Positions 7,632-32,000 of a stretch of 32,000 nucleotides of DNA are shown piece by piece (the stretch's first letter is position 1; each line of letters begins with the position of its first letter). The position numbers and the translations under genes are program-made. The stretch is from Bacteroidales bacterium (GTDB lineage: Bacteria > Bacteroidota > Bacteroidia > Bacteroidales > UBA932). Location: NCBI GenBank assembly GCA_017469745.1, contig JAFUFS010000051.1, forward strand, positions 15,222 to 47,221. Reading direction: 5' to 3'. Below the pieces are notes generated by a model that was not told the origin of the DNA, made no database searches, and saw nothing but the letters and a program-made list of their open reading frames with translations.

Positions 7632-7654
7632 TAAACTAACAGCTTTTAATCGCA

Positions 7655-8449: not shown

Positions 8450-8453
8450 TCCC

Positions 8454-10771: not shown

Positions 10772-15768
<4,997 letters not shown>

Positions 15769-16371
15769 CTATAGGTTACAAAACAATGTGACGAGGAATG
15801 GAACGCTGAAGTCAACGGTGAAACCGTGGAAGATCGATAGGATCACGAAGTCGTCGCCGCAGCATCGGGCTATGATTGGCAGGGTGGTGTCCATGGATGT
15901 CGCTCCTCCGGCAGAGATCGGAGCCAGCTTTCCGAACCATCTTGCCATAAGCGGAGCGCCCAGGAGGGTTATTATCTCCCTCATGATGTTTGCCAGCAGG
16001 GCCACTGTCCCTAGTTCAGTCCCCTTGAATTCATTTATGAATATGCTGGACAGGGAATAGTAACCGAAGCCGGAACCAACTGCAAGACAGTCAAGTACTG
16101 ACCTGGCCGGAAGGCAGATCGAGACTATGGCACAGCCCGCCAGGGTTCCCGTGATCGTCATCAACGGTAGCAGAAGGAGACGTGGATCCATTGATTTCAG
16201 GTCACGGAGTACCTTCGTGTCGTTGCCGAGGCTGATCCCGACGCAGAACATCAGTGCAAATAGGGCCCAGTGGCTTGCATCTCCTCCGATCAGGCTTTCC
16301 GGGACCAGCCCTGAAAGACCGGCAGCTATCCCTGCAATGAAGAACAGCAGGATGACAAGGCTGTTCTTCAT
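15769..16371 (-). CDS. LysO/YbjE (DUF340) family transporter, large subunit-like protein
   Basis: 200-aa membrane ORF (MKNSLVILLFFIAGIAAGL...FCVGISLGND...GGATSMDTTLPII), typical of the DUF340 lysine-exporter family. It lies 6 nt upstream of the GH2 start. Confidence 0.68.
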   Translation of the reverse strand: MKNSLVILLFFIAGIAAGLSGLVPESLIGGDASHWALFALMFCVGISLGNDTKVLRDLKSMDPRLLLLPLMTITGTLAGCAIVSICLPARSVLDCLAVGSGFGYYSLSSIFINEFKGTELGTVALLANIMREIITLLGAPLMARWFGKLAPISAGGATSMDTTLPIIARCCGDDFVILSIFHGFTVDFSVPFLVTLFCNL

Positions 16372-16640
16372 CTTCCCGTCCCGTGGTCAGCGTATTTCCA
16401 AAGAGCAAAAGCCGCCCCCATGCTCCCGGCAAGTCCCGACAGAGTCAGGGCCAGGGCTTCCAGCCCCAGGTCTTGCAGGTGTCCTATTATCCTTGGATCA
16501 GAACCGACTTCTATACCGATAAGCAAAAGAAGGATCCACACAAGCACCATGATGATTCGGGGAAGGATCTTGACCGGATGCTTCCTGAGCAGGACTCCGA
16601 AAGCTATCCCCGAGAGCAGGACGACGGCTATCTTCAGCAT
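16368..16640 (-). CDS. LysO/DUF340 family small membrane protein (N-terminal-type piece)
   Basis: 90-aa, three-helix ORF (MLKIAVVLLSGIAFGVLLRK...LLLLIGIEVGSD...). Its stop overlaps the next ATG as ATGA (16368-16371). It starts 6 nt after the SusD stop. Confidence 0.58.
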   Translation of the reverse strand: MLKIAVVLLSGIAFGVLLRKHPVKILPRIIMVLVWILLLLIGIEVGSDPRIIGHLQDLGLEALALTLSGLAGSMGAAFALWKYADHGTGR

Positions 16641-16646
16641 GATATT

Positions 16647-18167: not shown

Positions 18168-18179
18168 TCTGTTTTTATG

Positions 18180-21100
18180 TTAGAATCCGAATTTGATGCC
18201 TGCCATGTAGGTCCGGTAGAGAGGGTAGCCGCCGTAATCGACACCCATAGTGCCGTTTGAGGCTCCTGTAGTCACATCGTAGCCGGTGTACTTGGTGAGG
18301 GTGAAGAGTCTTCTGCCTCCGACATAGATCCTTAGGCTGCCAAGGCCGATTTTTTTGCATGTCCTGTCGGGAAGGTTGTAGCCAATCTGCAGGTTGTTCA
18401 GCCTCAGGAAGTCTCCGTTCTCGACAAAGCGGTCAGAGATCCTGTTGTTCCCGTTGGGATCACCGATGACGGCCCTGGGAATGTCGGTGTCGGGATTGTC
18501 CGGCCTCCATGAATTCAAGGCATCCTTACCGTAATTGAAGACCTGGTCCATCCTCTGGAGCTGGTACTTGGTGTAGTTGTATCTCTTTGCTCCCATGTTG
18601 CCGTAGAACTGGGCGCTGAGGTCGAAGGCCTTGTAGCGAAGGTAGACGTTGAATCCAAGGATGAGCTTCGGGTTGCCGGTGCCGACAAGTACCTTGTCGT
18701 CATTATCCAGCTGTCCGTCTCCGTTCTGGTCTACGAACCTGATGTCTCCGGGCTTTGCACTGGGCTGGAGGGGAATCCATGCACCCGTCTCGTCGGAATG
18801 TCCGTGGGACTTGTTGAATTCGTCCACTTCAGCTTGGCTGCGGAACAGCCCGTCGGTCTGGAAGACCCAAAATTCGCCGATCTCGGCTCCCACGTAGGTC
18901 CTGGCTGGACCATATTCATAGAGGTAGTCGGGATTGGACATCGAGACCAGTTTGCTCCGGTAATGGGAGAGGTTCAGGTCGAGGTCGTACTGGAAGTCCC
19001 TTCCGGAGTTGCCGTGGTATTCGACCTGGTACTCGAAACCGCTTGTCTTGAGTTCTCCGTCGTTCACGATCATCGCCGAGAATCCTGTACTGCTGCTTAT
19101 CTCCTTTGTCGAGAGCATGTCCCTGGTGTCCTTTAAGTAAGCATCGGCTGACATCTGCAGCTTGCCTCCGAGGAAGCCGAGATCGATTCCGATGTTGGAG
19201 GTGTATGTGGACTCCCATTTGATGTTGAGGGAGGGCAGGGAAGTGATTGCATAGCCGAGGCTGATGTCATTGAGACCGGCGAAAGGATAGTTCAGGCTGT
19301 TCGTAGCGGAGCTGAGGGTGGGAATGTACTGATAGTTTCCAATGCCCTGGTTGCCGAGTGCTCCGTAGCTGAGACGAAGCTTGAATGTTGAGACCGTCCC
19401 GGCCCAGGGCTCCCAGAATCTTTCGTTCGCTATGTTCCAGGCCAGAGATGCAGATGGGAAGAAACCCCATTTGTTGCCTTCGGCGAATCTGGAAGAACCG
19501 TCGTAACGGGCCGAGAACATGGCTATGTAGCGGTTGTCGTAGTTGTAGCCCAGACGGCCGAATGCCGAACGGAGTCCGTAGCGGCTGTGGCCTCCTCCCA
19601 CTGCGAAGTCTTTCTGACCATGCTCAAGGTAAGTCATGAGGTTGTTCTCGAACTTCTTGGCAAAAGCGCTCAGGTCGTAGTAGGAATAGTTTTCCTGCGA
19701 CACTCCCAGGAGGGCCGACACATTGTGTACTCCACCGAATGACCTGTCATAGTTGGAGGTGAGCTCCAGGAGGTAGCGGTTGCCCATGCTGCGCGATTCG
19801 CTGAGAGAAGCGTCCGGATTGGGCTTGAGAGCACCTATCTGGTAGGTTGGAGTGAAGACCTTTGAATGGGAGAAATTGAGGTTGTCGCTTCCCTGGAACT
19901 TCAGCACGAGGCCGTCCAGGGGGGAATACGAGATGTAACCCGAGGCGGAAAGTCCGTCGTAGCGGTTCTTGGTGTCGATCAACTTGTTGAAGGCCACAGG
20001 GTTGCCGGCGTCTGACATACCCATTCCGGCAACAGCTCCTCCGAAGCCTCCGTCGTTCTTCTCGTCGTAGACGAACACCAACGGCTCGATGTTGGTCACC
20101 TGGTACATTGTGTCGAATCCGGAACTCTCGACGGGGATTATGTCCTCATGGCCGAAATTGACGGATTCTCCTATCTTCCACCGGCCTCTCCTGACGTCTG
20201 AATTGAGTCGGAAGCCGTACTTGTCGGAACTGGTCGCAACGGCGATGCCCTGGATCTCTGAATAATAGCCCGAGAAGGCAACGTTCATGTTGCTGTTGCC
20301 TGCTACGTAGCCGACATCGTATTTCTGGGACAGGCCGACCTGGTAGTATTCCTTCTGCCAGTCCGTGTCGGCGAAGCGTGAAGGGTCGGCCTTGAAGGCT
20401 GAGATGTACGCTGGCCACCTCTCCTGAGGCTCTCCGGCGTTCTCCAGGGCCCATTGCCTGACTTTGACGAACTCGGCTGCGTTGCACATCTCCATTCGCT
20501 TGGGCAGGTCGTCGATACCGTAGTAGGCTGACATCGTGATCCTTGGCTCGGAAGCCTTGTCGCCCCTCTTCGTCTCGACCAGGATGACGCCTGCTGCAGC
20601 CCTTGCGCCGTAAATGGCCTGCGTGGCTGCATCCTTCAGAACCGAGATGGATTTGATGTCTTCCGGATTGAGGTATGACATTGATCCCGGGACTCCGTCG
20701 ATGACCACGAGGGGGGTGTTGTCGGATCCCCAGGAGGTGACTCCGCGGACCATCATGACAGGTTCAGAGCCGGGAGCTCCGGAAGAGAAGTTGACCGAAA
20801 GACCCGGGGCCATGCCCTGCAGGGCAGTCGAGGCATCTTCGGTCGCGATCTTCTCCAGTTTCTTCGAACTGACTGAGGCGACAGCTCCCGAAACGTCCTG
20901 CCTCTTCTGGCTTCCGTAGCCGATGGCCACGACTTCTTCCAGCATCTCGGCATCCGGCTCGAGAGTCAGGTCGAGTGCCGGTCCTTCGGCCTTGACTTCA
21001 ACTGTCTTGTAGCCGATCAGGGAGATGACAAGGACATCGCCCCTTGTCACGTTGATGGAATAGTTGCCGTCAAGGTCCGTGCTGGTACCTTGACCCGTAC

Positions 21101-21236
21101 CCTTGACGAGAACGTAGGCCCCGACAGCTCCGGAACCGGTCTCGTCCTTGATTTGTCCCTTGACATTGATAAGTTCCTGCGCCCCTGCGATGGTGGCTCC
21201 CAATGCCAGGATGATGGTTAACAGAATCCTTTTCAT
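18180..21236 (-). CDS. susC: SusC/RagA-family TonB-dependent outer-membrane transporter
   Basis: 1018 aa. After the signal peptide comes a CarboxypepD_reg-like start (INVKGQIKDETGSGAVGAYVLVKGT...TDLDGNYSI). A plug region follows (IAIGYGSQKRQDVSGAV, DGVPG), then a long barrel ending in the C-terminal aromatic residues (...AGIKFGF). There is no N-terminal anti-sigma signalling extension. Confidence 0.92.
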   Translation of the reverse strand: MKRILLTIILALGATIAGAQELINVKGQIKDETGSGAVGAYVLVKGTGQGTSTDLDGNYSINVTRGDVLVISLIGYKTVEVKAEGPALDLTLEPDAEMLEEVVAIGYGSQKRQDVSGAVASVSSKKLEKIATEDASTALQGMAPGLSVNFSSGAPGSEPVMMVRGVTSWGSDNTPLVVIDGVPGSMSYLNPEDIKSISVLKDAATQAIYGARAAAGVILVETKRGDKASEPRITMSAYYGIDDLPKRMEMCNAAEFVKVRQWALENAGEPQERWPAYISAFKADPSRFADTDWQKEYYQVGLSQKYDVGYVAGNSNMNVAFSGYYSEIQGIAVATSSDKYGFRLNSDVRRGRWKIGESVNFGHEDIIPVESSGFDTMYQVTNIEPLVFVYDEKNDGGFGGAVAGMGMSDAGNPVAFNKLIDTKNRYDGLSASGYISYSPLDGLVLKFQGSDNLNFSHSKVFTPTYQIGALKPNPDASLSESRSMGNRYLLELTSNYDRSFGGVHNVSALLGVSQENYSYYDLSAFAKKFENNLMTYLEHGQKDFAVGGGHSRYGLRSAFGRLGYNYDNRYIAMFSARYDGSSRFAEGNKWGFFPSASLAWNIANERFWEPWAGTVSTFKLRLSYGALGNQGIGNYQYIPTLSSATNSLNYPFAGLNDISLGYAITSLPSLNIKWESTYTSNIGIDLGFLGGKLQMSADAYLKDTRDMLSTKEISSSTGFSAMIVNDGELKTSGFEYQVEYHGNSGRDFQYDLDLNLSHYRSKLVSMSNPDYLYEYGPARTYVGAEIGEFWVFQTDGLFRSQAEVDEFNKSHGHSDETGAWIPLQPSAKPGDIRFVDQNGDGQLDNDDKVLVGTGNPKLILGFNVYLRYKAFDLSAQFYGNMGAKRYNYTKYQLQRMDQVFNYGKDALNSWRPDNPDTDIPRAVIGDPNGNNRISDRFVENGDFLRLNNLQIGYNLPDRTCKKIGLGSLRIYVGGRRLFTLTKYTGYDVTTGASNGTMGVDYGGYPLYRTYMAGIKFGF

Positions 21237-21283
21237 GAATATTACTTGATTAAGTGGTCACCCGAACCCCGGGCTTTCGACGG

Positions 21284-21291
21284 CAAAAATA
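21284..21291 (-). promoter_or_regulatory. Candidate -7 promoter box (TATTTTTG) for susC
   Basis: The minus-strand sequence TATTTTTG matches the Bacteroides TAnnTTTG -7 consensus. It lies about 48 nt upstream of ATG 21236. Confidence 0.3.
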
Positions 21292-21332
21292 CCGGTGCCC
21301 TCAATGGACGGCAAGAAAAGGATATCCCTCCC

Positions 21333-21375
21333 ATCTCTACAAACAGGGGGTGATAATGGAGTTTAATCTCTACAA
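21333..21375 (-). promoter_or_regulatory. Two exact 10-nt direct repeats (TTGTAGAGAT on the minus strand) upstream of susC; candidate activator site
   Basis: ATCTCTACAA occurs at 21333-21342 and 21366-21375 on the plus strand, 33 nt start to start. A degenerate third copy (cGTAGAGAa) lies at 21422-21431. All are upstream of the candidate -7 box at 21284-21291. Confidence 0.35.
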
Positions 21376-21432
21376 CTTTCGATGTGGATCAGTTGAAAAT
21401 CAAATTGTTGAGAATTACCCCTTCTCTACGGA

Positions 21433-22962
21433 TCAGATTTTCCCTAGGAAGTCGCTAAGATTGTCGCTGGCCTGGAGATTGAGCTTCTTGCGGAGACGGT
21501 ACCTGGCCATGTCGACGGATTTCGGTTCCATGGACATCATGAGTGAGATCTCCTTTGAGGACATTCCGATCCTGAGGAGCGAGGCAAGCCTTTTATCTGA
21601 GTTGGAAAGGTCCGGGTAGATGGATGAGAGTTTTGCGATGAAACCAGAGTTGATGTCATCTATCATCTTGTCGGCCTCGTCGTTTGTCCTGTTGAACTGG
21701 GAGATTGACGAATTGAGTTTCTTGAGGTGGCGCGTGGCTTCGTCCGAGTCCATCCCGTAGGCTTCCTTTATCCTGTCCTGGATGCCGGACAGGATCTCGT
21801 TTCGGCTGCGGACGTAGATTGCGAAGTTCTCAAGCTCTTTCTTGTTGAGATCCAGTTCCTTCTGCATCAGTTCCTTCTGCTTGTGGTTCGCTTTCCGGAA
21901 GACCCTGTAGGACACCGCCACCACGACACAGATCGCAGCCAGGATTGCGATGATTGCGGCCGCTATCTTCCTCCTAAGCCGGAACTCCCTTTCGCTCTGC
22001 TCCTGCTCTTTCCTGATGGTCTGGATGTTCTTTTCCATCAGGTTGACCTCGATGTTCTTCAGCCCTCCGGTCATGTCCTTGCTTTCGATCTGGTCCAGGA
22101 GGCTTTTCAGGTCCGAGTAGGCCCTGGAATACTCTCCCATGCCGGCATAGACCTCGGACCTGTAGCGGAGGTTGTCCATAGTCAGCTCCTGGGCGTTGGT
22201 CATGTCGGCGTAGACCTTTGCCTTTGAAAGGGCCTCCAGGGCGCTGGCATTGTCTCCTAGCCTCCTGTACTGGTAGCCGAGATTGTTGTAGTTCTCTCCG
22301 AGGACCCATGTCCTGCCGAGGGATTCGTTGATCGCTATCGCCTCCTTGAGCTGTTCGATTGTTGTGGCCGGATCCGCGTCGATGAAAGACATGTTGTTGA
22401 GATTCTGTGCGATCCCGATCTTGTTGCCTATGGCCCGGTTGAGCCTAAGGGACTCGGCGAAATACTTCCCGGCCATGCTATTGTCCGGTATCGCGATGTA
22501 GATCAGACCCTTGTTGTTGTTGCATCTCGCGATCGACGCCGTGTCCTTCCTATGTTCGGCAATGGCCTGAGCCTTCTCAAGGTACCTGAAGGCATGGTCG
22601 AAGTCCTTGATCTTCTGGTAGGAATAGCTTATGCTGAGGTAGATGTCGGCCATGAGGGAACTGTCCTCATCCGGGCAGTTCCTTTCAGCCTCGAGAAGAT
22701 ATTCATAACTGGTCACGTAATCGCCCATGTTGATGTAGGCATTTGCGATGAGGTACTGGGCTTCCGCGATCAGGGTCGGCTCCTTGGCCGAAGCCGCTTC
22801 CGTGAGTGCCTGCCCCGCGTGGTAGATTGCTTTGGCAGGATCCCGCGAGAGGTTCTCTCCTGCTTTGTCGAGGTGTTCGCGTACAGTCCATCCATCCTCC
22901 TTCGCAAGCAGCGGAAGAAGAGACAGGAAAAAAGCTATGAATATGGAAATGTATTTTTTCAT
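21433..22962 (-). CDS. Membrane-spanning TPR-repeat sensor fused to a C-terminal LuxR-type HTH (one-component regulator)
   Basis: 509 aa. It has an N-terminal signal/anchor (MKKYISIFIAFFLSLLPLLA) and about 270 aa of TPR-like repeats (AxxYxxxGxY patterns). A single internal TM follows (IAAAIIAILAAICVVVAVSY), then a coiled-coil and the LuxR/GerE HTH (SNSDKRLASLLRIGMSSKEISLMMSMEPKSVDMARYRLRKKL). Confidence 0.75.
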   Translation of the reverse strand: MKKYISIFIAFFLSLLPLLAKEDGWTVREHLDKAGENLSRDPAKAIYHAGQALTEAASAKEPTLIAEAQYLIANAYINMGDYVTSYEYLLEAERNCPDEDSSLMADIYLSISYSYQKIKDFDHAFRYLEKAQAIAEHRKDTASIARCNNNKGLIYIAIPDNSMAGKYFAESLRLNRAIGNKIGIAQNLNNMSFIDADPATTIEQLKEAIAINESLGRTWVLGENYNNLGYQYRRLGDNASALEALSKAKVYADMTNAQELTMDNLRYRSEVYAGMGEYSRAYSDLKSLLDQIESKDMTGGLKNIEVNLMEKNIQTIRKEQEQSEREFRLRRKIAAAIIAILAAICVVVAVSYRVFRKANHKQKELMQKELDLNKKELENFAIYVRSRNEILSGIQDRIKEAYGMDSDEATRHLKKLNSSISQFNRTNDEADKMIDDINSGFIAKLSSIYPDLSNSDKRLASLLRIGMSSKEISLMMSMEPKSVDMARYRLRKKLNLQASDNLSDFLGKI

Positions 22963-23000: not shown

Positions 23001-23008
23001 TATATTTG
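23001..23008 (+). promoter_or_regulatory. Candidate -7 promoter box (TATATTTG) for the kinase-like/peptidase/PqqD/ABC operon
   Basis: Exact TAnnTTTG match about 20 nt upstream of ATG 23027, in the 64-nt gap between the divergent regulator gene and the operon. Confidence 0.35.
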
Positions 23009-23026
23009 CAGAATAATATTGTCGAT

Positions 23027-23905
23027 ATGCAGATCAAGGAAAAGTCATACAAGGTGGCGGGACACGTGTTCACGCTGAAGATGGAAGAGGACGATAAGCT
23101 TTGGAACGCCCTTGGCAACTACGAGCCTTTCGCGTGTGAGGCTGATTCCGATCCTGTGTTCACTCTCGAGCTTGTCCAAAAGGTTGAGACTGAGGGGAAG
23201 AAGGAACTTTATATCTCCGACCCTGAGGATGTCGAACAGAGGATTGACATCTACACCATGGAAGACGGCTACCTGTTCGAGATGGCTCCCTTCGGCAATG
23301 TGCCGGTGTGCGGTTGGCTCAGGGTGGATTCCGGTTTCACCACCGGTTCGCTCATGGTAGAAAAAGACAATCGCTTCTGCGTCAACAATGCCCTGATGCT
23401 GATGTATGCCTTCCGTACCGCGGATCTGGACACCCTTGAGATGCACGCCTCCGTGACCGTCAAGGACGGAAAGGGTTTCCTGTTCCTTGGCAAGAGCGGG
23501 ACCGGAAAGAGCACTCACAGCAGCCTCTGGCTTAAGAATATTCCCGGAACACATCTTTTGAATGACGACAATCCCATCGTGAGGATAGTTGACGGTCAGG
23601 TGAGGGTCTACGGCAGCCCTTGGAGCGGCAAGACCCCATGCTACCGCAATGAGGACTATCCGGCCGGGGCCTTCGTCAGGATCAACCGTGCTCCCTACGA
23701 TGCTATCCACAGGATGTCCATCCCCGAAGCTTTCGCATCGATTTCTTCGTCCTCGTCCGGCCTCAGGGCCATCCGGAGGATAGGAGACGGGCTCTATTCA
23801 ACACTGTCGTCGGTCGTCCAGACCGTGCCCTGCTATGTGCTCGACTGCCTTCCCGATGACGAGGCGGCCATAGTTTGTTCAAAGGAGGTTCTTGGCAATG
23901 CGTAA
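23027..23905 (+). CDS. HPr-kinase/phosphorylase C-terminal-domain-like P-loop protein (putative peptide/protein Ser kinase)
   Basis: I prefer ATG 23027 (MQIKEKSYKV...) over the track TTG 23006. The core HASVTVKDGKGFLFLGKSGTGKSTHSSLWLKNIPGTHLLNDDNPIVRI follows the HprK pattern H-x-S/V...G-x-G-x-L-x-x-G-x-S-G-x-G-K-S...L-x-x-DD. Confidence 0.6.
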   Translation: MQIKEKSYKVAGHVFTLKMEEDDKLWNALGNYEPFACEADSDPVFTLELVQKVETEGKKELYISDPEDVEQRIDIYTMEDGYLFEMAPFGNVPVCGWLRVDSGFTTGSLMVEKDNRFCVNNALMLMYAFRTADLDTLEMHASVTVKDGKGFLFLGKSGTGKSTHSSLWLKNIPGTHLLNDDNPIVRIVDGQVRVYGSPWSGKTPCYRNEDYPAGAFVRINRAPYDAIHRMSIPEAFASISSSSSGLRAIRRIGDGLYSTLSSVVQTVPCYVLDCLPDDEAAIVCSKEVLGNA

Positions 23906-24413
23906 GTTCGCCGAGTGGATCCTGAGGATGATGCGCCATGTCGTGCAGCCTTTCCTGAAGAAGCCTGCTTCTCCCGGAGTGGTTTCCGACAAGCGGACTA
24001 TCGGGGACGACAACTATTTCATGGCGGTACGCATGTTGCTTGACGAGGGTAAGGAAGTCCTGTTCACTCCCAAGGGCGACAGCATGCTGCCGTTCATCAA
24101 GAACGGACGCGATTCCGTGGTGCTGGCTTCGTTGTCCAGGCCGCTGGAAGTGGGAGACATAATCCTTGTCAAGATAGGCCCCAAGTACATCATGCACAGG
24201 ATTTTCGCCCTTGACGGAGACAGGATCACCTTGATGGGCGACGGAAACATAAAGGGCAAGGAGCACTGTACCTTGAAGGATGTGATCGGAATTGTGACCG
24301 AGATCCACAAGGAGAGCGGAAAGGTTGTCAAGCCCGGGAAAGGAAGGTTCTGGAGAGCCATCCGGCCGTTGAGATTATTTTTTTTGGTATTTTATAAAAG
24401 AGTGATATTATGA
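23898..24413 (+). CDS. S24/S26-clan serine peptidase (signal-peptidase/SipW-like)
   Basis: ATG 23898 overlaps the upstream stop (ATGCGTAA). It has the PKGDSMLPFIKNG nucleophile motif, then EVGDIILV and YIMHRIF (general-base region), and a hydrophobic C-terminal tail. Confidence 0.62.
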   Translation: MRKFAEWILRMMRHVVQPFLKKPASPGVVSDKRTIGDDNYFMAVRMLLDEGKEVLFTPKGDSMLPFIKNGRDSVVLASLSRPLEVGDIILVKIGPKYIMHRIFALDGDRITLMGDGNIKGKEHCTLKDVIGIVTEIHKESGKVVKPGKGRFWRAIRPLRLFFLVFYKRVIL

Positions 24414-24679
24414 GGATTATCGAAGGTTTCGTCCTTAGGCCCCTCGTCGGGGAGTACATAGTGATCGGTGAGGGAATCGCCCAGATCAACTTCAACAAGA
24501 TGGTTTCTCTGAACCCTACGGCCGCCTATCTTTGGGAAAGCGTCGAAGGCAAGGATTTCACAGTCGAAGACCTGACCAAGCTCCTTACCGACAAGTATGA
24601 AGTGACGGAGGAGCAGGCCGCCGCCGATGCCGCAGCCCTTGCGGCGAAATGGATCGAGGCCGGAATAGTCTCTGAATAG
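24410..24679 (+). CDS. PqqD-family protein (RiPP recognition element-type peptide chaperone)
   Basis: 89 aa with an ATGA overlap onto the peptidase stop. SLNPTAAYLWESVEGKDFTVEDLTKLLTDKYEVTEEQAAADAAALAAKWIEAGIV matches the PqqD-like pattern LN-x-TAA-x-W...G-x-x-T-V-x-(D/E)-(L/I)...Y-(E/D)-V. Confidence 0.75.
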   Translation: MRIIEGFVLRPLVGEYIVIGEGIAQINFNKMVSLNPTAAYLWESVEGKDFTVEDLTKLLTDKYEVTEEQAAADAAALAAKWIEAGIVSE

Positions 24680-24695
24680 TTTTACGTCCGGGACG

Positions 24696-26372
24696 ATGAA
24701 GGATTTCAAGACATGCATTAAGGGGCTCTGGAGGATGTCCAAGCCTGTGCTGGGAAGGGACCTTGTCACCGTCCTGATAGGAGGGGTACGCATTGCCGCC
24801 TCCCTCTCGTTCGTGTGGATCTGCAAACGTCTGGTGGACATTGCTACCGGTGTCAGTGACGTAGCTCTCGCACCTCACGTCTGGATAATGATCGGTATCA
24901 TCCTGACACAGATCATCTGCGGACTTGCATCCAATTACTGGGGCGCCTACAACACCATCAAGACTCGCAACCAGCTGAGACTCGGGATGTTCGCCCATGT
25001 GCTGAACTCCCGCTGGAATGGTCGTGAGGCCTTCCGTTCAGGAGACACGATCAACCGTCTTGAGGAGGACATCAGGGTTCTCACCGACCTTATCTGCGGC
25101 AGTTTTCCCGATGTGATCATCACCATCTGCCAGTTGCTTGCCGCTTCGGTCTACCTCTTGACGATGGCACCGTCGCTTCTCTGGGTCCTTATCATCCTGA
25201 TGGCTGCCGCCGTGATCGGCTCCAAGATGTATTTCAAGAAGATCCGTGAGCTTACGTCAAAGATACGCTCACTGGACAGCGAGGTTCAGCAGCTGGAGCA
25301 GGAGAATCTTCAGAACAGGGTTCTGGTCCTGACCCTTTTTGGCGTCGGGAATATAGTTTCGCGTCTCTCCGGTCTTCAGGAGACTATCAAAAAGAACACA
25401 ATCACCAGGCTCAATTACAATGCGGTTGCCAGGGGCTTCATGAACATCGGTTTCATGGGCGGATATGCCGCAGCCTTCCTTTGGGGAATATACGGCATCA
25501 AGTCCGGAGCGGTGACCTACGGTATGATGACCGCCTTCCTGCAGCTGGTCGGCCAGGTCCAGCGTCCTATTGCCAGCCTGGGTACGCAGGTACCTGCTTT
25601 CATCAAGGCGCTTACCTCGATAGAGCGTCTGCTGGAACTAGAGGACCTCAAGGTTGAGCGCTATCACGGTGACGTCCTCTTCGAAGGAGCCCCCGGGATC
25701 CGTGTCTCCGATGTCTCGTTCGCTTACTGTCATCCTGAGCGCAGCGAAGGATCTTCCAGTCGCAGCGAAGGATCTGCTCCTCGCCTCGTCCTCGACAACT
25801 TCTCCCACGACTTCGCTCCCGGTACGCTGACGGTAATCGCCGGTCCGACCGGAGTAGGGAAGAGTACCCTCACAAGGCTCATGCTTGGGCTGCTGCATCC
25901 GACAGAGGGAACCGTCAACCTATATTCCCGGAACGGCAAGTCCCACACTGCCGACGTGGACACTCGCTGCAATTTCACCTACGTTCCTCAGGGCAACAGC
26001 CTCCTAAGCGGTACGATCAGGGAGAATATGCTTCTGGTAAATTCGGAAGCTACTGATGAGCAGATCGTCGAGGCTCTAAAGCTGGCGGCTGCTGAGTTCG
26101 TGCTGGGTCTTCCCGACGGTCTTGACACGGTCTGCGGAGAGAGCGGCACAGGCCTTTCCGAAGGTCAGTGCCAGAGGATTGCCATAGCCAGGGCCCTGCT
26201 GCACCGTGGAGGAATCATGATCCTTGACGAGGCCACCTCCGCCTTGGATGTCGAGACCGAAGAACGTCTCCTCGACAACATCCACACCCATCTCGCCGGC
26301 GACAAGACCATCGTCTTCATCTCCCACCGTCCCGCCGCCACCCGTATCGCCGACGACGTCGTGAACCTGTAG
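24696..26372 (+). CDS. ABC exporter half-transporter (N-terminal 6-TM domain + C-terminal ATPase), no C39 peptidase domain
   Basis: 558 aa. Walker A is GPTGVGKST, the signature is LSEGQCQRIAIARAL, Walker B is ILDEATSALD, and the H-loop is FISHR. It carries an atypical insert, CHPERSEGSSSRSEGSAP, between NBD strands 1 and 2. Confidence 0.9.
   Translation: MKDFKTCIKGLWRMSKPVLGRDLVTVLIGGVRIAASLSFVWICKRLVDIATGVSDVALAPHVWIMIGIILTQIICGLASNYWGAYNTIKTRNQLRLGMFAHVLNSRWNGREAFRSGDTINRLEEDIRVLTDLICGSFPDVIITICQLLAASVYLLTMAPSLLWVLIILMAAAVIGSKMYFKKIRELTSKIRSLDSEVQQLEQENLQNRVLVLTLFGVGNIVSRLSGLQETIKKNTITRLNYNAVARGFMNIGFMGGYAAAFLWGIYGIKSGAVTYGMMTAFLQLVGQVQRPIASLGTQVPAFIKALTSIERLLELEDLKVERYHGDVLFEGAPGIRVSDVSFAYCHPERSEGSSSRSEGSAPRLVLDNFSHDFAPGTLTVIAGPTGVGKSTLTRLMLGLLHPTEGTVNLYSRNGKSHTADVDTRCNFTYVPQGNSLLSGTIRENMLLVNSEATDEQIVEALKLAAAEFVLGLPDGLDTVCGESGTGLSEGQCQRIAIARALLHRGGIMILDEATSALDVETEERLLDNIHTHLAGDKTIVFISHRPAATRIADDVVNL
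25737..25778 (+). repeat. Two tandem 21-nt units (core CGCAGCGAAGGATCT x2) in frame inside the ABC ATPase domain
   Basis: Unit 1 is GAGCGCAGCGAAGGATCTTCC (25737-25757) and unit 2 is AGTCGCAGCGAAGGATCTGCT (25758-25778). They share 16 of 21 nt, including a 15-nt identical core, and encode ERSEGSS/SRSEGSA. Confidence 0.8.
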
Positions 26373-26640: not shown

Positions 26641-27183
26641 ATGATAGACGAAATCCTTCAGTACAACCGGGAGTTCGTGGCGAGAAAAGGCTACGAGCCG
26701 TTTATTACAGACAAATATCCTTCAAAGAAGCTTGCGGTGCTGACATGCATGGACACCCGCCTGACCGAGCTGTTGCCCAAAGCGCTCGGACTCAGGAACG
26801 GCGATGCAAAGATCATCCGCAATGCCGGAGGCCTGGTCCTGACTTCTACAGATTCAGCCATCCGCTCTTTGCTTGTAGGAATATATGAGCTTGGTGTTGA
26901 AGAGATTATGGTTGTCCATCATTCCAATTGCGGAGCCTGCCACATGTGCTTTGAAGAATTCAAGCCGCTGATGCTGGGAAGGGGAGTCTCCCCTGAAGCC
27001 ATTAAGGCTTTTGAAGAGGCCGGCTGTGACATTGAGGAATGGCTTGAAGGCTTCCATGACACCGAGGCTTCTGTCCGCCGTACTATGGCTGCGATCACCG
27101 GCCATCCACTTGTTCCAAAGGATGTTACCGTCCGCGGTTTCATCATAGATTCCGTCACCGGTGCTCTGACGGAACTTAAATAA
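26641..27183 (+). CDS. Beta-class carbonic anhydrase
   Basis: 180 aa. The zinc ligand and catalytic motifs are CMDTR (C-x-D-x-R) and HHSNCGA (H-x-x-C). The size and layout resemble short Cab-type beta-CAs. Confidence 0.82.
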   Translation: MIDEILQYNREFVARKGYEPFITDKYPSKKLAVLTCMDTRLTELLPKALGLRNGDAKIIRNAGGLVLTSTDSAIRSLLVGIYELGVEEIMVVHHSNCGACHMCFEEFKPLMLGRGVSPEAIKAFEEAGCDIEEWLEGFHDTEASVRRTMAAITGHPLVPKDVTVRGFIIDSVTGALTELK

Positions 27184-27312: not shown

Positions 27313-28175
27313 ATGCAAATCTTTGCCAACCTGCTCCACGACGATACTTTCAAGATTGTCGTCGGGGCGCCGGGAAATGAGACCTGTTCTGTACTTCGGA
27401 AGAAGGGGAGCAGTTCATCGTAGAGATGCAGTTCTCTGGCCAGGCTACCTTCAAAGAACGGATGCTGGTGTACGCGACGTATCCGATCCGTGCGCAGATG
27501 GACAAGAGGCTGAAAGAAATAGAGAAACTGACATCAGGGGATGAAGAGGCTGCGGAAGCGAGTGGCAGGAAGCCCGACAAGATGTATTACGGCTTGCACC
27601 CGATCTATGTTATCAGCCTTCTGAACTTCAGTCTTCGTCATGAGAACAATGAGGCGTTGGACGAAGGGATGATCAGCCGGTATTCGATTCGGAATGACCG
27701 CAATGGAGAACTGATGACAGATGCACTGCACTTCATCTTTCTGGAACTTGGGCGGTTGGGCTTGAGGAAGAGGGACTACGCAAAGTGCAGGACACCGCTT
27801 CAGAAGATGGCATATTCGTTGAAATATATGCACGAGCTTGGCGCTGCTCCAGCAGGGTTCGAAGATGGGTTTCAACGGATGCTTTACAAGGCCAGCGAGC
27901 TGGCCGGAATGACACAAGAACAACGAAGACAATACGATAGAGCCATGACAACAAAGATTGACATAATTGCCCAGCAGGAATATGCCAGCGAGGAAGGACT
28001 CGCCGAGGGGCTCAAAAGAGGCCAAAGACAAGGTCGCCAGGAAGGTCGCGCAGAAGGTGCAGAACTCAAGTCTGAGGAGATTGCACGAAAGATGATTGAT
28101 TCGAACATTCCATATGAAACCATTAGATTATGCACAGGCCTATCAGATGCAAAGATCCGTAGCCTTATGGAATAA
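27313..28175 (+). pseudogene. Rpn-family recombination-promoting nuclease / PD-(D/E)XK putative transposase, N-terminal internal deletion plus frame change
   Basis: ATG 27313 gives MQIFANLLHDDTFKIVVGAPGNE, the family-typical N-terminus, then runs out of frame. The main frame opens only after TGA 27378-27380 with DLFCTSEEGEQFIVEMQFSGQATFKERMLVYATYPI..., which is the nuclease core. Roughly 45-50 aa that normally lie between the two pieces are missing. The C-terminus (EGLAEGLKRGQRQGRQEGRAEG...IPYETIRLCTGLS) is typical of the family. Confidence 0.62.
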
Positions 28176-28257
28176 ATTGAGCAATCAAACAATTAGACTC
28201 ACATATCCGTGCTTTCTAGGGCTTTTTTGCCTAGCAACCGCACCTGTAATAACGAAT

Positions 28258-28292
28258 CCGTGCTGTCAAGGTAGACCGGCACGGTGTTTTTT
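28258..28292 (+). terminator. Candidate rho-independent terminator downstream of the Rpn-like pseudogene
   Basis: A CCGTGC (28258-28263) / GCACGG (28279-28284) stem with a 15-nt loop is followed by TGTTTTTT. The stem is short and the loop is large, so the call is weak. Confidence 0.3.
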
Positions 28293-28554
28293 ATTATGTC
28301 TGTTCGGCCCGTTGTTCAGATCATTGTTGATAACTTTTTTTCATGATCATCCGGATGCAAAATCCACATTGGAGGCCCTTAATTTGAATCATTTTGATTA
28401 GCCACTTGCAGAACCTTCATTTTCTGTCCTTTAAGTGTAACTTAAAGATTTGGAATTCACCCGAAAAATTCATAAAAATGCAAGACTTTGGCTTTGAAAA
28501 ATTAACCGCATTTTTAGGCAAAATTTATTAATCATAAAATTCAAAATTTGTAGT

Positions 28555-28689
28555 ATGAAAAAGAAACTAATGTATGAAGTTCCCGACGCGGAACTGATCG
28601 AGCTGAAAGCTCAAGGAGTCTTTATGGCCTCAGTAGAAGGCGAGTCTATTCAATCACTCGAGTATGACTCTGATGAGTTGAATTGTTAA
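28555..28689 (+). CDS. Unannotated 44-aa ORF (below the ORF-track size cut-off): MKKKLMYEVPDAELIELKAQGVFMASVEGESIQSLEYDSDELNC
   Basis: It runs from ATG 28555 to TAA 28687-28689, 14 nt upstream of the lipoprotein ATG 28704 on the same strand. Its composition matches the AT-rich island. It contains a leader-like Y-x-x-P-x-x-E-L-I-E-L motif. There is no independent evidence that it is translated. Confidence 0.3.
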   Translation: MKKKLMYEVPDAELIELKAQGVFMASVEGESIQSLEYDSDELNC

Positions 28690-28703
28690 TTATGTGTAGA
28701 CTT

Positions 28704-30782
28704 ATGAAAAAGAATTTATTCTTCATAGCTAGCACCATCTTTATGGTTCTTGCTGTTACTAATTGTTCTAAAGAGATTATTGATCCTTCAAATGATAATG
28801 ACATTCAAAAGGGATCTTCTTTTGAGCTTATTGCCACACCAGTTGAGACAAGAACAGAGAATGATGGCATGAACACTAAATGGGTCAGCGGTGACGCGAT
28901 AAATGTGTTCCATGCTGAAGAAGAAACTACTAACTATGTTAGTGATGGCGAATTTATAATCACAGATGTTTCTACCAATCGATTCCAAGGAACTGTTTCT
29001 GAAACTCTTGAAGCTGACAAGAAGTATGATTGGTATATGTTCTATCCTTATAGCTCCCATATTACTACTCCCGCTAATACGAACGCTGGTTATACTGTTG
29101 TTGGTAGTAGGAATAATGGAAATCAGACGCAGGCTGGTAATAATAACAAGGCCCATATTGCGGGCCCCAATTATCCACTTATTGGAGTACTTCCCTCTGT
29201 TGCAAGTACGGAGGTTCCTAAAGTGAGCGTGAATCAGGTGTGTTCCTTCATAGAGTTTAATGTTAAGAATACTTCGAGTGAGGACCTTGTCGTTAAAAGT
29301 ATTGTCTTTACAGCCACGGAAGACATTGTTGGAACGTATTATATAAATTTCATCGATCCTGAGAATGTAGTGTTCACTCCCAGTACCAATGATGATGGAA
29401 CGTATACTTATGCCTCTGAGAAGGCGGTCCTGAATGTTACTGATGGAGAGACAATTGCTAATGGTAATAGCGCAGCCTTTTATATTGGAATAAAGCCTTT
29501 CAGTGTTTCTTCCGGAACGTTGAAGGTTGCTGTCAATGGGTATGAGAAGGAAATAAATATCACCAAGAGTACCTCATTCTCCGCAGGAAAAATCAAGAAG
29601 ATAAACTTCGATTATAACAAGGAGGCGGAAGTATTACCTGTTTATGACAATACTTCGGCAGACTATTCGACTGGCTTCGAGGATGGCTTTACTGCCGGAA
29701 CAGCTTACAACAATACGCTTGAGAAGCTTGATGGTCCAGAGAATGAGCAGTGGGCATCATACTACGGAACCGTTTCCACGAGTTCAAAACTCAATGGTAA
29801 TAATTCAATGCAAATGCGTTGGTATACTTCAGCTGCTAAAAATCTTGGATATGCCCGTACAAACTTTAAAGTTGCTAAAGTTGGTTCTGTCTCTTTCTCA
29901 GCGGCCGCCACTAACAATTTGAATCTTTCTCTGTTCTACATGACTGAAAAAGATGAAGATTGGGTTCTAGCTCAAACGTTTACCCTGACATCGACATCGA
30001 AGCAGTATAGTTATGAGTTCTCTTCTCCTATTGAGAATGCCCAGTTGAAATTCCAGATTGCTCTTCCTGCGACAAATCCTTCAAGCAATTCGAATGTGCG
30101 AATAGATGATGTTGTCGTTTCTAAGGATGTACCTGTTGTGGAACTGGCTTCCATCGCCATTACTAAGAATCCCACCAAGACTACGTATACCCTAGGTGAA
30201 GAATTTGTTTTTGACGGAGAGGTAACTGCTACCTATTCCGATGGGTCTACAGTCGTTGTTACTGATGATATTGAATCTGACGGCGCAACAGTAGTAGCTA
30301 CTGTGGGTGTAGATAAGACCGTTACTATCTCTTACACTGACGGTGAAATTACTAAGACTTCTACGTATGAGATTACTGTAAACGACCCTGATGCTTCTTA
30401 TATAGAGGTTCCTTCTCAGACGATCACCTTCTCTGAACTTGGGTATGACAATGGTGCCGAGGTAAGCCAGGTTGATGGGACCAACTGTGGCATAAACTTC
30501 AATAAGGGAACAAATTCTAATACGCCGAAGTATTATACCTCAGGTAATGCAGTTCGTGCATATGGTGGAAACTTCTTTATTGTTACAGTTGAAGAGGGTT
30601 ATCAGATCAGTTCCATAGAGCTGACCTTTGGCTCTAGCGATGGCTCAAATGCTATTACCACGGATAAGGGAACATATTCCGATGGTAAATGGACTGGTTC
30701 CGTTCAGAATGGAGGTTCAGTTACCTTCACTATCGGAGGAACCACTGGAAATAGGAGAATCAGTTCTATTAAGATTAACTGA
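28704..30782 (+). CDS. Large surface lipoprotein: fimbrillin-like N-terminal region, beta-sandwich (choice-of-anchor/CBM-like) domain, bacterial Ig-like domain, unknown C-terminal domain
   Basis: ATG 28704 gives the lipobox MKKNLFFIASTIFMVLAVTNC (the track start TTG 28683 is less likely). The Ig-like segment is LASIAITKNPTKTTYTLGEEFVFDGEVTATYSDGSTVVVTDD...TVTISYTDGEITKTSTYEITV. It ends at TGA 30780-30782, which is in frame with the next ORF. Confidence 0.7.
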   Translation: MKKNLFFIASTIFMVLAVTNCSKEIIDPSNDNDIQKGSSFELIATPVETRTENDGMNTKWVSGDAINVFHAEEETTNYVSDGEFIITDVSTNRFQGTVSETLEADKKYDWYMFYPYSSHITTPANTNAGYTVVGSRNNGNQTQAGNNNKAHIAGPNYPLIGVLPSVASTEVPKVSVNQVCSFIEFNVKNTSSEDLVVKSIVFTATEDIVGTYYINFIDPENVVFTPSTNDDGTYTYASEKAVLNVTDGETIANGNSAAFYIGIKPFSVSSGTLKVAVNGYEKEINITKSTSFSAGKIKKINFDYNKEAEVLPVYDNTSADYSTGFEDGFTAGTAYNNTLEKLDGPENEQWASYYGTVSTSSKLNGNNSMQMRWYTSAAKNLGYARTNFKVAKVGSVSFSAAATNNLNLSLFYMTEKDEDWVLAQTFTLTSTSKQYSYEFSSPIENAQLKFQIALPATNPSSNSNVRIDDVVVSKDVPVVELASIAITKNPTKTTYTLGEEFVFDGEVTATYSDGSTVVVTDDIESDGATVVATVGVDKTVTISYTDGEITKTSTYEITVNDPDASYIEVPSQTITFSELGYDNGAEVSQVDGTNCGINFNKGTNSNTPKYYTSGNAVRAYGGNFFIVTVEEGYQISSIELTFGSSDGSNAITTDKGTYSDGKWTGSVQNGGSVTFTIGGTTGNRRISSIKIN

Positions 30783-30789
30783 AGCGGAT

Positions 30790-30808
30790 CCGGAGGCGGA
30801 ACCTCCGG
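30790..30808 (+). other. GC-rich RNA hairpin 7 nt downstream of the in-frame TGA
   Basis: CCGGAGG (30790-30796) pairs with CCTCCGG (30802-30808) across the loop CGGAA. This is 7 consecutive Watson-Crick pairs, 6 of them G:C, inside otherwise AT-rich DNA. Confidence 0.55.
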
Positions 30809-30854
30809 GGGCCAGACGGCTACAGCAATAGTAACTACTGGTGATGCTACGGAC

Positions 30855-32000
30855 GTGAGTTCGTCAGGGGCAACCCTGACCGCTTCTTTCTCGGGAGTTT
30901 CAACCGTCAATAAGCCAACAGACGTCTTATTCAAATACGGAACCTCTTCAGACAATTTGAATCAGACAATCGGTGCGATTGAGTCGATTAATTCGGGAAG
31001 CGGTGATTTTACTGCTATCTTGACTGAACTCAGTAGTGGCACGGCTTATTATTTCCAGGCCTACATGACGGTCTGGGATGAGGAGGCCAACGAGTACAAG
31101 ACGATTTCCGGTGACGTAATTAAGTTCGAAACAAACCCGAAAGGCGAGACTGGAGTCCAGCGTGGCTATTATGAGTTGCCATCTATGAGCACTGTAAAGA
31201 ATGGTGAGTATCTTGTAAGCTCCACAGATCCTAATACCTACTTTGCCTATCACATGTGCGCCGGCGGAGAAACATATTCATTCAACGGCAAACTGATTAC
31301 GGCACGTAATTACACGGTTTGTTTCAGTGGCGAAGACCATGTTGCATATTGGGTAGCGGCTCCTAGACATACCATGTATAATGGGAACAACAGGACAGAT
31401 AATTACAAAGCTGACCCGGACATCCCAAGTGATGTGCAATATCAGGCTGATAAGATAGGAGATGGTTGCAACAGAGGCCATATCTTAGGATCTGCTGAAC
31501 GAGGTGTCTCCAGTGCTACGAATAATCAGGTTTTCTATTTCAGCAATATAGCTCCGCAATTGCAGTCTGGTTTCAATACAGGCGGAGGTGGGTGGAATGA
31601 ACTTGAGGATTGGGTAGACGGTCAAGTATGTGCTGATACGCTCTATCAGGTTGTCGGTTGCTATTTCAAAGACTATACTGATGGCTATAAAAACAGCGTC
31701 AAGGCCAAGAAAATCAGCTACGGTGGCAGAACCGATGTCAGTTTCCCGACCATGTTCTACTACGTGCTGATCCGTACTAAAAAAGGTAATTCTGGCAAGG
31801 CGTTGAAGGATTGTTCAGCTGATGAACTCAAGTGTGCAGCTTTCGTCCGTTCGCACACCAATAACCTTAAGGGGCAGAAAGTTACTTCTGCAGAGATGAT
31901 GAGTGTGGCTGACCTAGAGAAAATAACGGGTTTCACCTATTTCGTCAATGTCCCTAATGCGCCAAAGAACACGGTCAATGCTTCCGATTGGGGACTGTAA
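30855..32000 (+). CDS. DNA/RNA non-specific endonuclease (Serratia NucA / Endonuclease_NS family, beta-beta-alpha-Me) preceded by an Fn3/Ig-like domain; probably continuous with the upstream lipoprotein frame
   Basis: The active-site region is GCNRGHILGSAER (RGH motif), followed by FYFSNIAPQ and GGGWNELEDW. The stop TAA is at 31998-32000, the window end. The only available start is GTG 30855. There is no signal peptide, and the frame is open back to the TGA at 30780-30782, so the true 5' limit may be 28704. Confidence 0.8.
   Translation: MSSSGATLTASFSGVSTVNKPTDVLFKYGTSSDNLNQTIGAIESINSGSGDFTAILTELSSGTAYYFQAYMTVWDEEANEYKTISGDVIKFETNPKGETGVQRGYYELPSMSTVKNGEYLVSSTDPNTYFAYHMCAGGETYSFNGKLITARNYTVCFSGEDHVAYWVAAPRHTMYNGNNRTDNYKADPDIPSDVQYQADKIGDGCNRGHILGSAERGVSSATNNQVFYFSNIAPQLQSGFNTGGGGWNELEDWVDGQVCADTLYQVVGCYFKDYTDGYKNSVKAKKISYGGRTDVSFPTMFYYVLIRTKKGNSGKALKDCSADELKCAAFVRSHTNNLKGQKVTSAEMMSVADLEKITGFTYFVNVPNAPKNTVNASDWGL

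Follow-up and report, generated by a model that had tools for sequence, protein, structure and literature searches.

A widespread Bacteroidales cassette encoding a ScmC-family phosphotransferase, an S24/S26-fold peptidase, and a PqqD-family protein, and a candidate precursor peptide linked to it

The 32,000-nt stretch of Bacteroidales DNA analyzed here (assembly GCA_017469745.1, contig JAFUFS010000051.1, positions 15,222 to 47,221 of the forward strand; hereafter the window, in whose own numbering its features are given) carries an operon of four genes at 23027–26372, which encode a ScmC-family phosphotransferase, an S24/S26-fold peptidase, a PqqD-family protein, and an ABC exporter. We propose that this operon represents, in a variant with an ABC exporter, a widespread, uncharacterized Bacteroidales cassette for the leader-dependent maturation of small ribosomal peptides, a proposal whose chances we judge to be about even. 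An earlier, sequence-only reading had recognized in the operon the logic of a lasso-type pathway for peptides that are made by ribosomes and modified after translation (RiPPs), without a cyclase and without a visible precursor. Inside the operon the absence of a precursor holds, but a member of a candidate precursor family had been overlooked elsewhere in the window, at 28555–28689. The RiPP-like reading is strengthened, though still unproven, by this 44-aa peptide encoded 2.2 kb downstream, which is a plausible substrate of the cassette.

Results

An ORF check of the window confirmed four open reading frames (ORFs) on the + strand, and the coordinates of the overlaps and of the gap between these same-strand genes matched the sequence-only reading exactly. 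Gene 1 (23027–23905, +) encodes a protein of 292 aa, a ScmC-family P-loop phosphotransferase of the PEPCK/HprK fold that is predicted to be cytoplasmic. It overlaps gene 2 (23898–24413, +) by ATGCGTAA at 23898–23905, and the 171-aa product of gene 2 is a soluble serine peptidase of the S24/S26 fold, as judged from its profile match, its fold, and its Ser62/His100 pair. Gene 2 in turn overlaps gene 3 (24410–24679, +), which encodes a stand-alone PqqD-family protein of 89 aa matching PF05402, by ATGA at 24410–24413, and a 16-nt gap (24680–24695) separates gene 3 from gene 4 (24696–26372, +), whose 558-aa product is identified by its Pfam domains as an ABC exporter with a fused transmembrane domain (TMD) and nucleotide-binding domain (NBD). 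A TAnnTTTG box similar to the Bacteroidetes -7 element, TATATTTG, lies on the same strand at 23001–23008, 19 nt before the ATG of gene 1 and within a divergent intergenic region of 64 nt; because the window as a whole shows no enrichment of the motif (12 occurrences versus 8.75 expected), its interpretation as a promoter, which is plausible, is argued from position. This ATG is the likely start of gene 1 and a TTG upstream at 23006 an unlikely one, because an identical protein in NCBI (P0001, from a metagenome-assembled genome (MAG) named "Bacteroidales bacterium") has 292 aa. Pfam scans of all large ORFs in the window detected no Asn-synthase-like, transglutaminase-like, or radical-SAM gene, so the lack of a lasso cyclase and of a B2 protease that had been pointed out before is borne out.

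Relatives of the operon were gathered through ScmC from genomes, metagenomes, and exact-protein look-ups, and the cassette genes were mapped by tblastn; a scan of genome contigs with a single protein reached close relatives only, and an alignment-based scan of metagenomes was more useful. The ScmC-S24-PqqD core recurs in about 120 loci, with ScmC identities of 38–93%, tight or overlapping junctions, and unrelated flanks. Arrangements were counted in the 60 loci that have room on both sides. The S24 gene adjoins the ScmC gene in 59 of them, and the order ScmC-S24-PqqD-ABC, identical with that in the window, is found in 32, which makes the arrangement far from one expected by chance. The other loci have the Paludibacteraceae-type order S24-PqqD-ScmC (7/60), ScmC-S24-PqqD-NTP_transf_5 (7/60), the bare ScmC-S24-PqqD trio (4/60), ScmC-S24-ABC without PqqD (3/60), or other arrangements (7/60), some of which include a nucleotidyltransferase gene together with an ABC gene. 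The core can thus be followed by an ABC exporter gene, which is present in 39 of the 60 loci, by a gene for a nucleotidyltransferase belonging to Pfam NTP_transf_5 (2.5e-32), which is present in 12, or by both. Single polypeptides of 433–485 aa that join ScmC and the S24 peptidase are encoded in metagenomes (P0243, P0246, P0355, and P0269), and such fusion products occur in several clusters; long "fusions" of LpxB or TruB with ScmC look like gene-calling run-throughs. The sequence-only reading had asked whether the four genes travel together and which small ORFs accompany them; in these loci the conserved core is ScmC and S24, generally with PqqD, the ABC gene is accessory, and one family of small ORFs besides PqqD recurs.

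When two genes on each side of the cassette were compared, the 350 neighbors fell into 196 families, the commonest of which is the peptide-linked lipoprotein described below, and the cassette is therefore an autonomous unit. No radical-SAM maturase was found among these 350 neighbors of related cassettes, and the CxxxCxxC motif occurred only in a MiaB-like housekeeping gene and in the archaeal locus L038. Likewise, no lasso cyclase was present in the Pfam-annotated contexts of the relatives, and no B2 protease beside the Bacteroidales cassettes. In Bacteroidales, the cassette is no accessory to a lasso or radical-SAM cluster; a conserved association with a radical-SAM/SPASM or complete lasso cluster, which had been named beforehand as the finding that would speak against a separate system, was not seen among these neighbors.

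Small ORFs were clustered across the loci, and only PqqD proved to be conserved inside or right beside the cassette in all lineages, on which ground a precursor hidden in the operon was rejected. The clustering of intergenic small ORFs yielded one other recurrent family, which is represented in the window by the 44-aa candidate precursor MKKKLMYEVPDAELIELKAQGVFMASVEGESIQSLEYDSDELNC (28555–28689, +). In a profile search the family comprised 704 clusters of 35–53 aa, all unannotated, and the peptides match no Pfam or NCBIfam family. Their leader has the consensus MKK..Y-E-A/V-P-x-A-E-x-I-E-L ... M. Invariant positions among 131 members are Tyr, Pro(+3), and Glu(+6), which are Y7, P10, and E13 in the window peptide, and Glu+1, Ala+2, Ala+5, Glu+9, and Met+17 (M24) are nearly invariant. 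Conservation stops abruptly at +17/+18 from the Tyr. The tail beyond is hypervariable and acidic, being composed of Gly (25%), Asp (12%), Ser (10%), Glu (9%), and Thr (7%) with Lys and Arg together at about 1%, and at least one Ser or Thr is present in the tail of every one of the 131 members. The synonymous variation of its conserved codons shows that the peptide ORF is translated. The YxxP motif precedes the conservation boundary by 17–18 residues, a spacing like that in lasso leaders, where the corresponding residues are Y-17 and P-14 (PMC10368454).

The peptide gene is linked to the cassette in several ways. In nine ScmC-S24-PqqD-NTP_transf_5 loci that were found via ScmC alone (L055, L056, L057, L062, L063, L071, L072, L095, and L121), it lies 23–275 nt after the NTP_transf_5 gene, and in L102 it begins just where the ABC gene ends. 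In the lineage of the window it is located 1.7–5.3 kb downstream of the ABC gene (the window, L007, L009, L010 twice, and L015, with an inverted copy in L018), and in L043 it is found 6 kb upstream of the cassette. Look-ups that started from the peptide on long contigs found the cassette directly upstream in six of six cases. In L131, the cassette, the peptide gene, and the lipoprotein gene stay together although the genes downstream of this unit differ. The interval between operon and peptide gene in the window, which contains genes for a beta-carbonic anhydrase (26641–27183) and a PD-(D/E)XK transposase-like protein (27426–28175), is a site of rearrangement, because relatives carry an IS200-like gene there instead. 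Apart from this family, locus L087 carries a different small ORF, MKKLYIQPNTQALPVVPMGSICIGSVHGKTSLRFGGGSDGSSDAVAPM, at 4410–4556 (+). This ORF is situated directly upstream of a gene for a secreted protein of 1,097 aa, at a distance of 4 kb from an NTP5/S24/PqqD/ScmC cassette, and may represent a second, divergent family of peptides with a Y-x-x-P start.

A gene for a lipoprotein of 322–1,237 aa follows every peptide gene within about 10–70 nt. That of the window (28707–30782, +) starts 18 nt after the peptide gene and encodes 691 aa with the lipobox ...AVTNC. The peptide-linked lipoproteins have a common N-terminal domain of ~300 aa and variable C-terminal parts, such as Ig-like domains or, in L128, a fused nuclease. 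Their identity as fimbrillins is only suggestive, as the scores stayed below the cut-off: one relative matched Mfa_like_1 with 1.7e-5, and a profile search against PDB retrieved only 4eps_A with an E-value of 0.02. If the proposal discussed below holds in its full extent, the pairing of peptide and lipoprotein would point to a joint function at the cell surface, as a ligand, an assembly factor, or a signal. The segment of the window from 28001 to 32000 has a GC content of 39–46% versus about 53% elsewhere; it holds the peptide and lipoprotein genes and an Endonuclease_NS gene (30855–32000) that is truncated where the window stops. L126 has this peptide-lipoprotein-nuclease trio as well, and L128 has a second peptide gene whose following lipoprotein is fused to the nuclease domain.

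Because no significant match among PDB chains was obtained with the sequences of genes 1 and 2, predicted structures were required in addition to profiles. All four earlier assignments hold at the level of family or fold. Profile searches placed genes 2, 3, and 4 as had been expected, but gene 1, which had been thought to carry the C-terminal pattern of an HPr kinase, did not match Pfam Hpr_kinase_C. Its weak profile matches are to PEPCK_ATP (4.7e-4), to ScmC TIGR04249 (1e-4; 21.8 bits versus a cut-off of 125), and to HprK_rel_A TIGR04352 (1.1e-4; 21.4 bits versus 200), and precomputed annotation assigns its homologues to a newer Pfam family, PF27840 "ScmC". The motifs that had been read from the sequences of genes 1 and 2 are present and conserved. 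For gene 1, H140-x-S142, G158-T-G-K-S-T163, N179-D-D-N-P183, and P198-WSGKTPCY206 are invariant in 46 homologues, and SGTGKST and NDD resemble Walker A and DD as they occur in PEPCK and HprK. The AlphaFold (AF2) model of gene 1, with a pLDDT of 94.8, best matches ATP-dependent phosphoenolpyruvate (PEP) carboxykinase (PEPCK) across both domains (E 2e-8) and then HprK/P (E 4e-5). Motifs and model together thus indicate a compact two-domain P-loop phosphotransferase of the PEPCK/HprK fold. Of the previous assignment as an HprK-like kinase, the P-loop and DD motifs and the fold match with HprK/P stand; a kinase of the paeninodin type is not established, and the protein belongs instead to the ScmC family. 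This family comprises 6,942 clusters at 50% identity with E<=1e-3, or 656 with E<=1e-30, and all of its named members come from uncultured Bacteroidales (MAGs). In NCBI, gene 1 is named "hypothetical protein" and gene 2 "S24/S26 family peptidase".

Gene 2 narrowly passes the cut-off of Pfam Peptidase_S24 (1.6e-5; 25.0 bits versus 23.3), and its best NCBIfam match is the signal peptidase of the archaeal/endoplasmic reticulum (ER) type, TIGR02228 (5e-4), besides a weak match to sod_Ni_protease TIGR02754 (0.05). Invariant residues in 33 homologues are S62, H100-R101, and M113-GDGN117. A profile search against PDB sequences, in which the E-values were marginal (0.015–0.03), aligned GnSMlP of gene 2 with SGSMEP of SEC11A and lHRV with IVHRV; LexA was aligned at the Ser, without a counterpart to the His, and gene 2 has this His where LexA-type proteins have Lys. 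The AF2 model shows the LexA/UmuD/SpsB/SipA fold, with the C-domains of LexA and UmuD as the top Foldseek matches. Most homologues have 139–149 aa and start ~30 residues later than the 171-aa ORF of the window, and a basic-hydrophobic C-terminal helix is conserved. No membrane anchor was found, as no 19-residue window exceeds a Kyte-Doolittle value of 1.6. Gene 2 is thus predicted, from motifs and model, to be a clan SF peptidase of the ER/SipW/SEC11 Ser/His type that is soluble, which agrees with its earlier identification as a SipW-like S24/S26 serine peptidase and corrects it in the point of solubility.

The PqqD domain of gene 3 is clear (PF05402, 2.6e-16), as had been read from the sequence, and provides the PqqD-like fold of the RiPP recognition element (RRE) that characterizes lasso B1 proteins. 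The NCBIfam models of lasso PqqD, ScmD, and PqqD match it weakly and all below cut-off, with 17–20 bits versus cut-offs of 70–80 for the lasso-specific models and 16.4 versus 46 for TIGR03859, and TIGR04353 is not among its NCBIfam matches. PqqD-fold proteins are peptide- or leader-binding modules, and the fold serves as an RRE in RiPP biosynthesis. Gene 4 contains ABC_membrane (3.7e-27, residues 33–291) and ABC_tran (2.5e-26, residues 366–515), has 38 hydrophobic windows by the Kyte-Doolittle scale, and finds its best NCBIfam match, far below cut-off, in MsbA. Pfam and NCBIfam profiles detected no C39 peptidase domain in it, so it is an exporter of the TMD and NBD type, as described before, and not a peptidase-containing ABC transporter (PCAT). 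The products of genes 1–3, which are predicted to be cytoplasmic, and the candidate peptide are free of hydrophobic segments and should therefore meet in the cytoplasm. In the NBD of gene 4, a lineage-specific loop of variable length, HPERSEGSSSRSEGSAPR (25731–25784), is absent or shorter in relatives and holds a 15-nt direct repeat, CGCAGCGAAGGATCT, at 25740–25754 and 25761–25775.

Discussion

Among known systems, the cassette most resembles the kinase/PqqD/nucleotidyltransferase/ABC part of phosphorylated lasso peptide clusters, while the cyclase and the B2 protease that define such clusters are missing. HprK-type kinases phosphorylate lasso precursors before folding, and the NTP_transf_5-type nucleotidyltransferase that accompanies them in phosphorylated or glycosylated lasso clusters adds a hexose to the precursor phosphate (PMC8498205); one lasso kinase phosphorylates an internal Ser (PMC10368454). 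The clusters of phosphorylated or phosphoglycosylated lasso peptides (paeninodin, pseudomycoidin, and Bsf), with their HprK-type kinase K, PqqD-like RRE B1, ABC exporter D, and nucleotidyltransferase N, have in common with the cassette an HprK/PEPCK-fold P-loop kinase, a stand-alone PqqD protein, and an ABC exporter, with relatives of the cassette the NTP_transf_5 enzyme, and with the candidate precursors a YxxP leader placed 17–18 residues before the putative leader/core boundary. The cassette differs from them in the absence of an Asn-synthetase-like cyclase and of a transglutaminase-fold B2, whose place is occupied by a Ser/His peptidase of the S26 type, and in its kinase, which is of the ScmC family and, as judged by profiles and fold, not a recognized lasso kinase (no match to Hpr_kinase_C). 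The candidate precursors are also distinct: the Leu(-12) of the lasso leader motif YxxPxL is replaced by Ala; a conserved residue at -2, which is Thr(-2) or Thr/Ile(-2) in lasso precursors, is missing; the core, which in lasso precursors begins with Gly/Ala/Ser/Cys and carries Asp/Glu at positions 7–9, is hypervariable; their tails rarely end in Ser; and a lipoprotein gene is coupled to the precursor gene.

Three other systems are partly similar. SynChlorMet (SCM; TIGR04248-04251, with ScmC TIGR04249 and ScmD TIGR04248) has the pair of a ScmC-family protein (PF27840) and PqqD in common with the cassette, but its two PqqE-like radical-SAM/SPASM maturases are absent from the window and from the neighbors of the Bacteroidales cassettes, where S24, ABC, and NTP_transf_5 partners are found instead, and the scores against its equivalogs are far below cut-off (21.8 versus 125 and 18.3 versus 100). 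HPr-rel-A, an uncharacterized proteobacterial neighborhood of HprK-related kinase A (TIGR04352), PqqD (TIGR04353), and a nucleotidyltransferase, shares the trio of kinase-like protein, PqqD, and nucleotidyltransferase; gene 1, however, reaches 21.4 of the required 200 bits, gene 3 does not match TIGR04353, and the S24 peptidase and the Bacteroidales peptide family lie outside the description of that system. In the biosynthesis of PQQ, PqqA carries WKKP, an aromatic-x-x-Pro motif. A small stand-alone PqqD and a short peptide with such a motif near its N terminus, here YE[AV]P, are therefore common to both systems, while PqqE, PqqB, and PqqC are lacking here. Full-text literature searches retrieved no paper on the Bacteroidales cassette or on the peptide family; "ScmC" led to unrelated acronyms only, and "SynChlorMet" to no papers. 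On L038, a Woesearchaeota contig, a remote relative (28% identity) stands in the classic SCM-type setting: positions 4547–8862 encode PqqD, a radical-SAM/SPASM protein, a 55-aa ORF, a ScmC-like protein, and a second PqqD. The Cys/His-rich 55-aa ORF begins with MKKKEWKKP (MKKKEWKKPICEKVKLRQAEACGFGIGHCKLIHHHRRHHH...), in which WKKP resembles the motif of PqqA, and this ORF may be the SCM precursor that has long been missing.

By analogy with these systems, we propose the following mechanism. The PqqD protein would bind the conserved YEAP leader of a precursor of ~40–50 aa, which in the window would be the 44-aa product of 28555–28689, and the ScmC-family enzyme would move phosphate from ATP onto Ser or Thr in the hypervariable tail rich in Gly, Asp, Ser, and Thr. 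In relatives that carry NTP_transf_5, this enzyme might decorate the phosphate further. The soluble Ser/His S26-type peptidase would then cut off the leader close to the conserved Met, at the end of the conserved part. The removal of an N-terminal propeptide is suggested by analogy with SodX, the cytoplasmic S26 protease for NiSOD maturation, which shares with gene 2, as do SEC11 and SipW, the fold and, in equal order, the Ser of G-x-S-M-x-P, the His of H-R, and GDxN; gene 2 differs from the SEC11/SipW signal peptidases in lacking a membrane anchor and in having only ~140 aa, and the E-values of these matches are marginal (0.015–0.1). The linear modified peptide would be exported by the ABC transporter and probably acts with the surface lipoprotein encoded right after the peptide gene. 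In its full extent, the proposal describes a so far undescribed class of linear leader-dependent peptides in rumen and gut Bacteroidales, defined by PqqD-guided core phosphorylation by ScmC, optional decoration by NTP_transf_5, cytoplasmic leader removal by a Ser/His peptidase, ABC export, and pairing with a cognate surface lipoprotein; that all of these elements are correct together is a tentative suggestion, and somewhat doubtful.

A number of observations weigh against this mechanism. As to the enzymes, the best structural match of gene 1 is PEPCK, a small-molecule kinase; PqqD, present in most related cassettes, is missing from L001-3, L024, and L117; and the NTP5-type cassettes have no exporter. 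As to the peptide, its C-terminal residue is Ser in only 13 of 131 members, so the C-terminal-Ser rule of the paeninodin type does not apply, and the residues before the boundary, [VLF]-M, are unlike a classical signal-peptidase site with small residues at -1/-3. The obligatory lipoprotein partner goes beyond a simple RiPP model and is the main observation that such a model leaves uncovered. Finally, the linkage is incomplete. No such peptide was found within flanks of 2–10 kb in 45 of 50 ABC-type loci, 28 of 30 core-only loci, and five NTP5-type loci that have room for it; L077 and L036 have NTP_transf_5 but no peptide in the flanks examined; the adjacency is limited to two main lineages and single loci and could partly reflect synteny; and in the window, a distance of 2.2 kb with two unrelated genes in it parts the operon from the peptide gene.

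These gaps in linkage would be explained if the cassette matures and exports a peptide whose true gene is unlinked, the YEAP peptide-lipoprotein pairs being syntenic neighbors in a few lineages. The NTP5-type loci do share synteny, with Dus/Lnt upstream and a FadL-like gene, a tetratricopeptide repeat (TPR) gene, and LptC downstream. Synteny is, on the other hand, hard to reconcile with linkage in at least five arrangements and contexts (behind NTP5, behind the ABC gene of L102, downstream in the lineage of the window, inverted as in L018, and upstream as in L043) and with L131, where the unit persists next to different downstream genes. Moreover, the peptide has the leader/core shape and the YxxP motif expected of a PqqD client, and no other small ORF recurs. 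We therefore regard an unlinked substrate as unlikely, yet deserving of consideration.

Another possibility starts from the lipoprotein, which follows every peptide gene directly, shares its N-terminal domain throughout, and constitutes the commonest neighbor family. The cassette might aid the biogenesis of these adjacent, perhaps fimbrillin-like proteins, with the peptidase acting in the manner of SipA/LepA in Gram-positive pilus assembly and the peptide serving as a chaperone or strand donor. The weak match of one lipoprotein to Mfa_like_1, the presence of Streptococcus pyogenes SipA among the structural matches of gene 2, and the location of the NTP5-lineage cassette beside Lnt and envelope-biogenesis genes are consistent with such a role. 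Exported lipoproteins would, however, be out of reach of the products of genes 1–3, which are devoid of signal peptides and membrane segments; gene 2, in contrast to SipA, retains the catalytic Ser/His pair; the assignment as fimbrillins stays below threshold; and most cassettes have no such lipoprotein nearby. A role in lipoprotein biogenesis accordingly appears distinctly improbable.

The substrate might also not be a peptide at all. ScmC could be a kinase for a small molecule or sugar, as its structural match with PEPCK over both domains would allow, NTP_transf_5 could activate or transfer a nucleotide-sugar, and the ABC protein, whose best NCBIfam match is MsbA, though far below cut-off, could flip a lipid-linked or small product, leaving regulatory roles to PqqD and the peptidase in an operon that contains no precursor. 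This scheme, to which we attach little credence, is at odds with the peptide-binding nature of known PqqD-family modules, with the protease accompanying ScmC more constantly than any other partner does (59 of 60 loci) and sometimes being fused to it, and with the occurrence of ScmC relatives in peptide-modifying radical-SAM/SPASM cassettes beside a small Cys-rich ORF (L038). A regulatory or defense module based on LexA-like self-cleavage, which the Foldseek matches of gene 2 with the C-domains of LexA and UmuD might suggest, is hardly credible, because a DNA-binding domain is missing, His replaces the LexA-type Lys, PADLOC gave no matches apart from generic similarity to ABC ATPases, and the cassette is chromosomal and syntenic, outside defense islands.

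The S24-PqqD-ScmC cassette is common in uncultured Bacteroidales of the rumen, the horse gut, and the human gut. If the maturation of a peptide is its true function, linear phosphopeptides would represent new RiPP-type chemistry in a phylum with few known RiPPs, and small secreted peptides would be tied to surface lipoproteins of dominant gut bacteria. It would also give the first functional handle on ScmC and on other modules of HprK-related kinases and PqqD, and, should the proposal hold in its full extent, the same ScmC-PqqD logic would account for the SynChlorMet and HPr-rel-A cassettes, which have long been orphans. With a candidate precursor at hand, one small peptide and three soluble proteins would allow a direct test of the hypothesis.

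Genes surrounding the cassette

The remainder of the window contains transporter genes, a TPR-LuxR regulator gene, and a polysaccharide locus of the SusC/SusD type that encodes GH2 and GH63-like enzymes. The transporter genes (P-type ATPase, DUF4890, SDF symporter, and Na+/H+ antiporters; 1–10715) abut the cassette in several relatives (L004-L006 and L011-L016 were compared), and in the window they are displaced from it by ~12 kb through the inserted polysaccharide-utilization locus (10772–22962). The divergent regulator gene (21433–22962, -) encodes a one-component regulator of 509 aa, in which a signal peptide, TPR repeats, and a single membrane segment are combined with a C-terminal helix-turn-helix (HTH) of the LuxR type; the best match of its TPR part, at 8e-18 and far below cut-off, is to the periplasmic sensor region of Porphyromonas FimS. 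The regulator gene heads the adjacent SusC/SusD locus and flanks the cassette in eight related loci, where its upstream position was set aside as local synteny and not taken as part of the system.

The same decision was made for a Metallophos gene that follows the ABC gene in 10 loci. The gene, found after the cassette in L004-L006, L013-L015, L128, and others, encodes a secreted calcineurin-like phosphoesterase of ~367 aa with a signal peptide; its position is probably due to synteny, but an extracytoplasmic phosphatase beside a putative exporter of phosphopeptides is noteworthy. In the NTP_transf_5 lineage (L122-L125, L131, and L134-L137), the cassette divergently adjoins the gene for apolipoprotein N-acyltransferase Lnt (LNT_N and CN_hydrolase) and lies upstream of genes for a FadL-like outer-membrane protein, LptC, and SurA, that is, in a neighborhood of envelope biogenesis.

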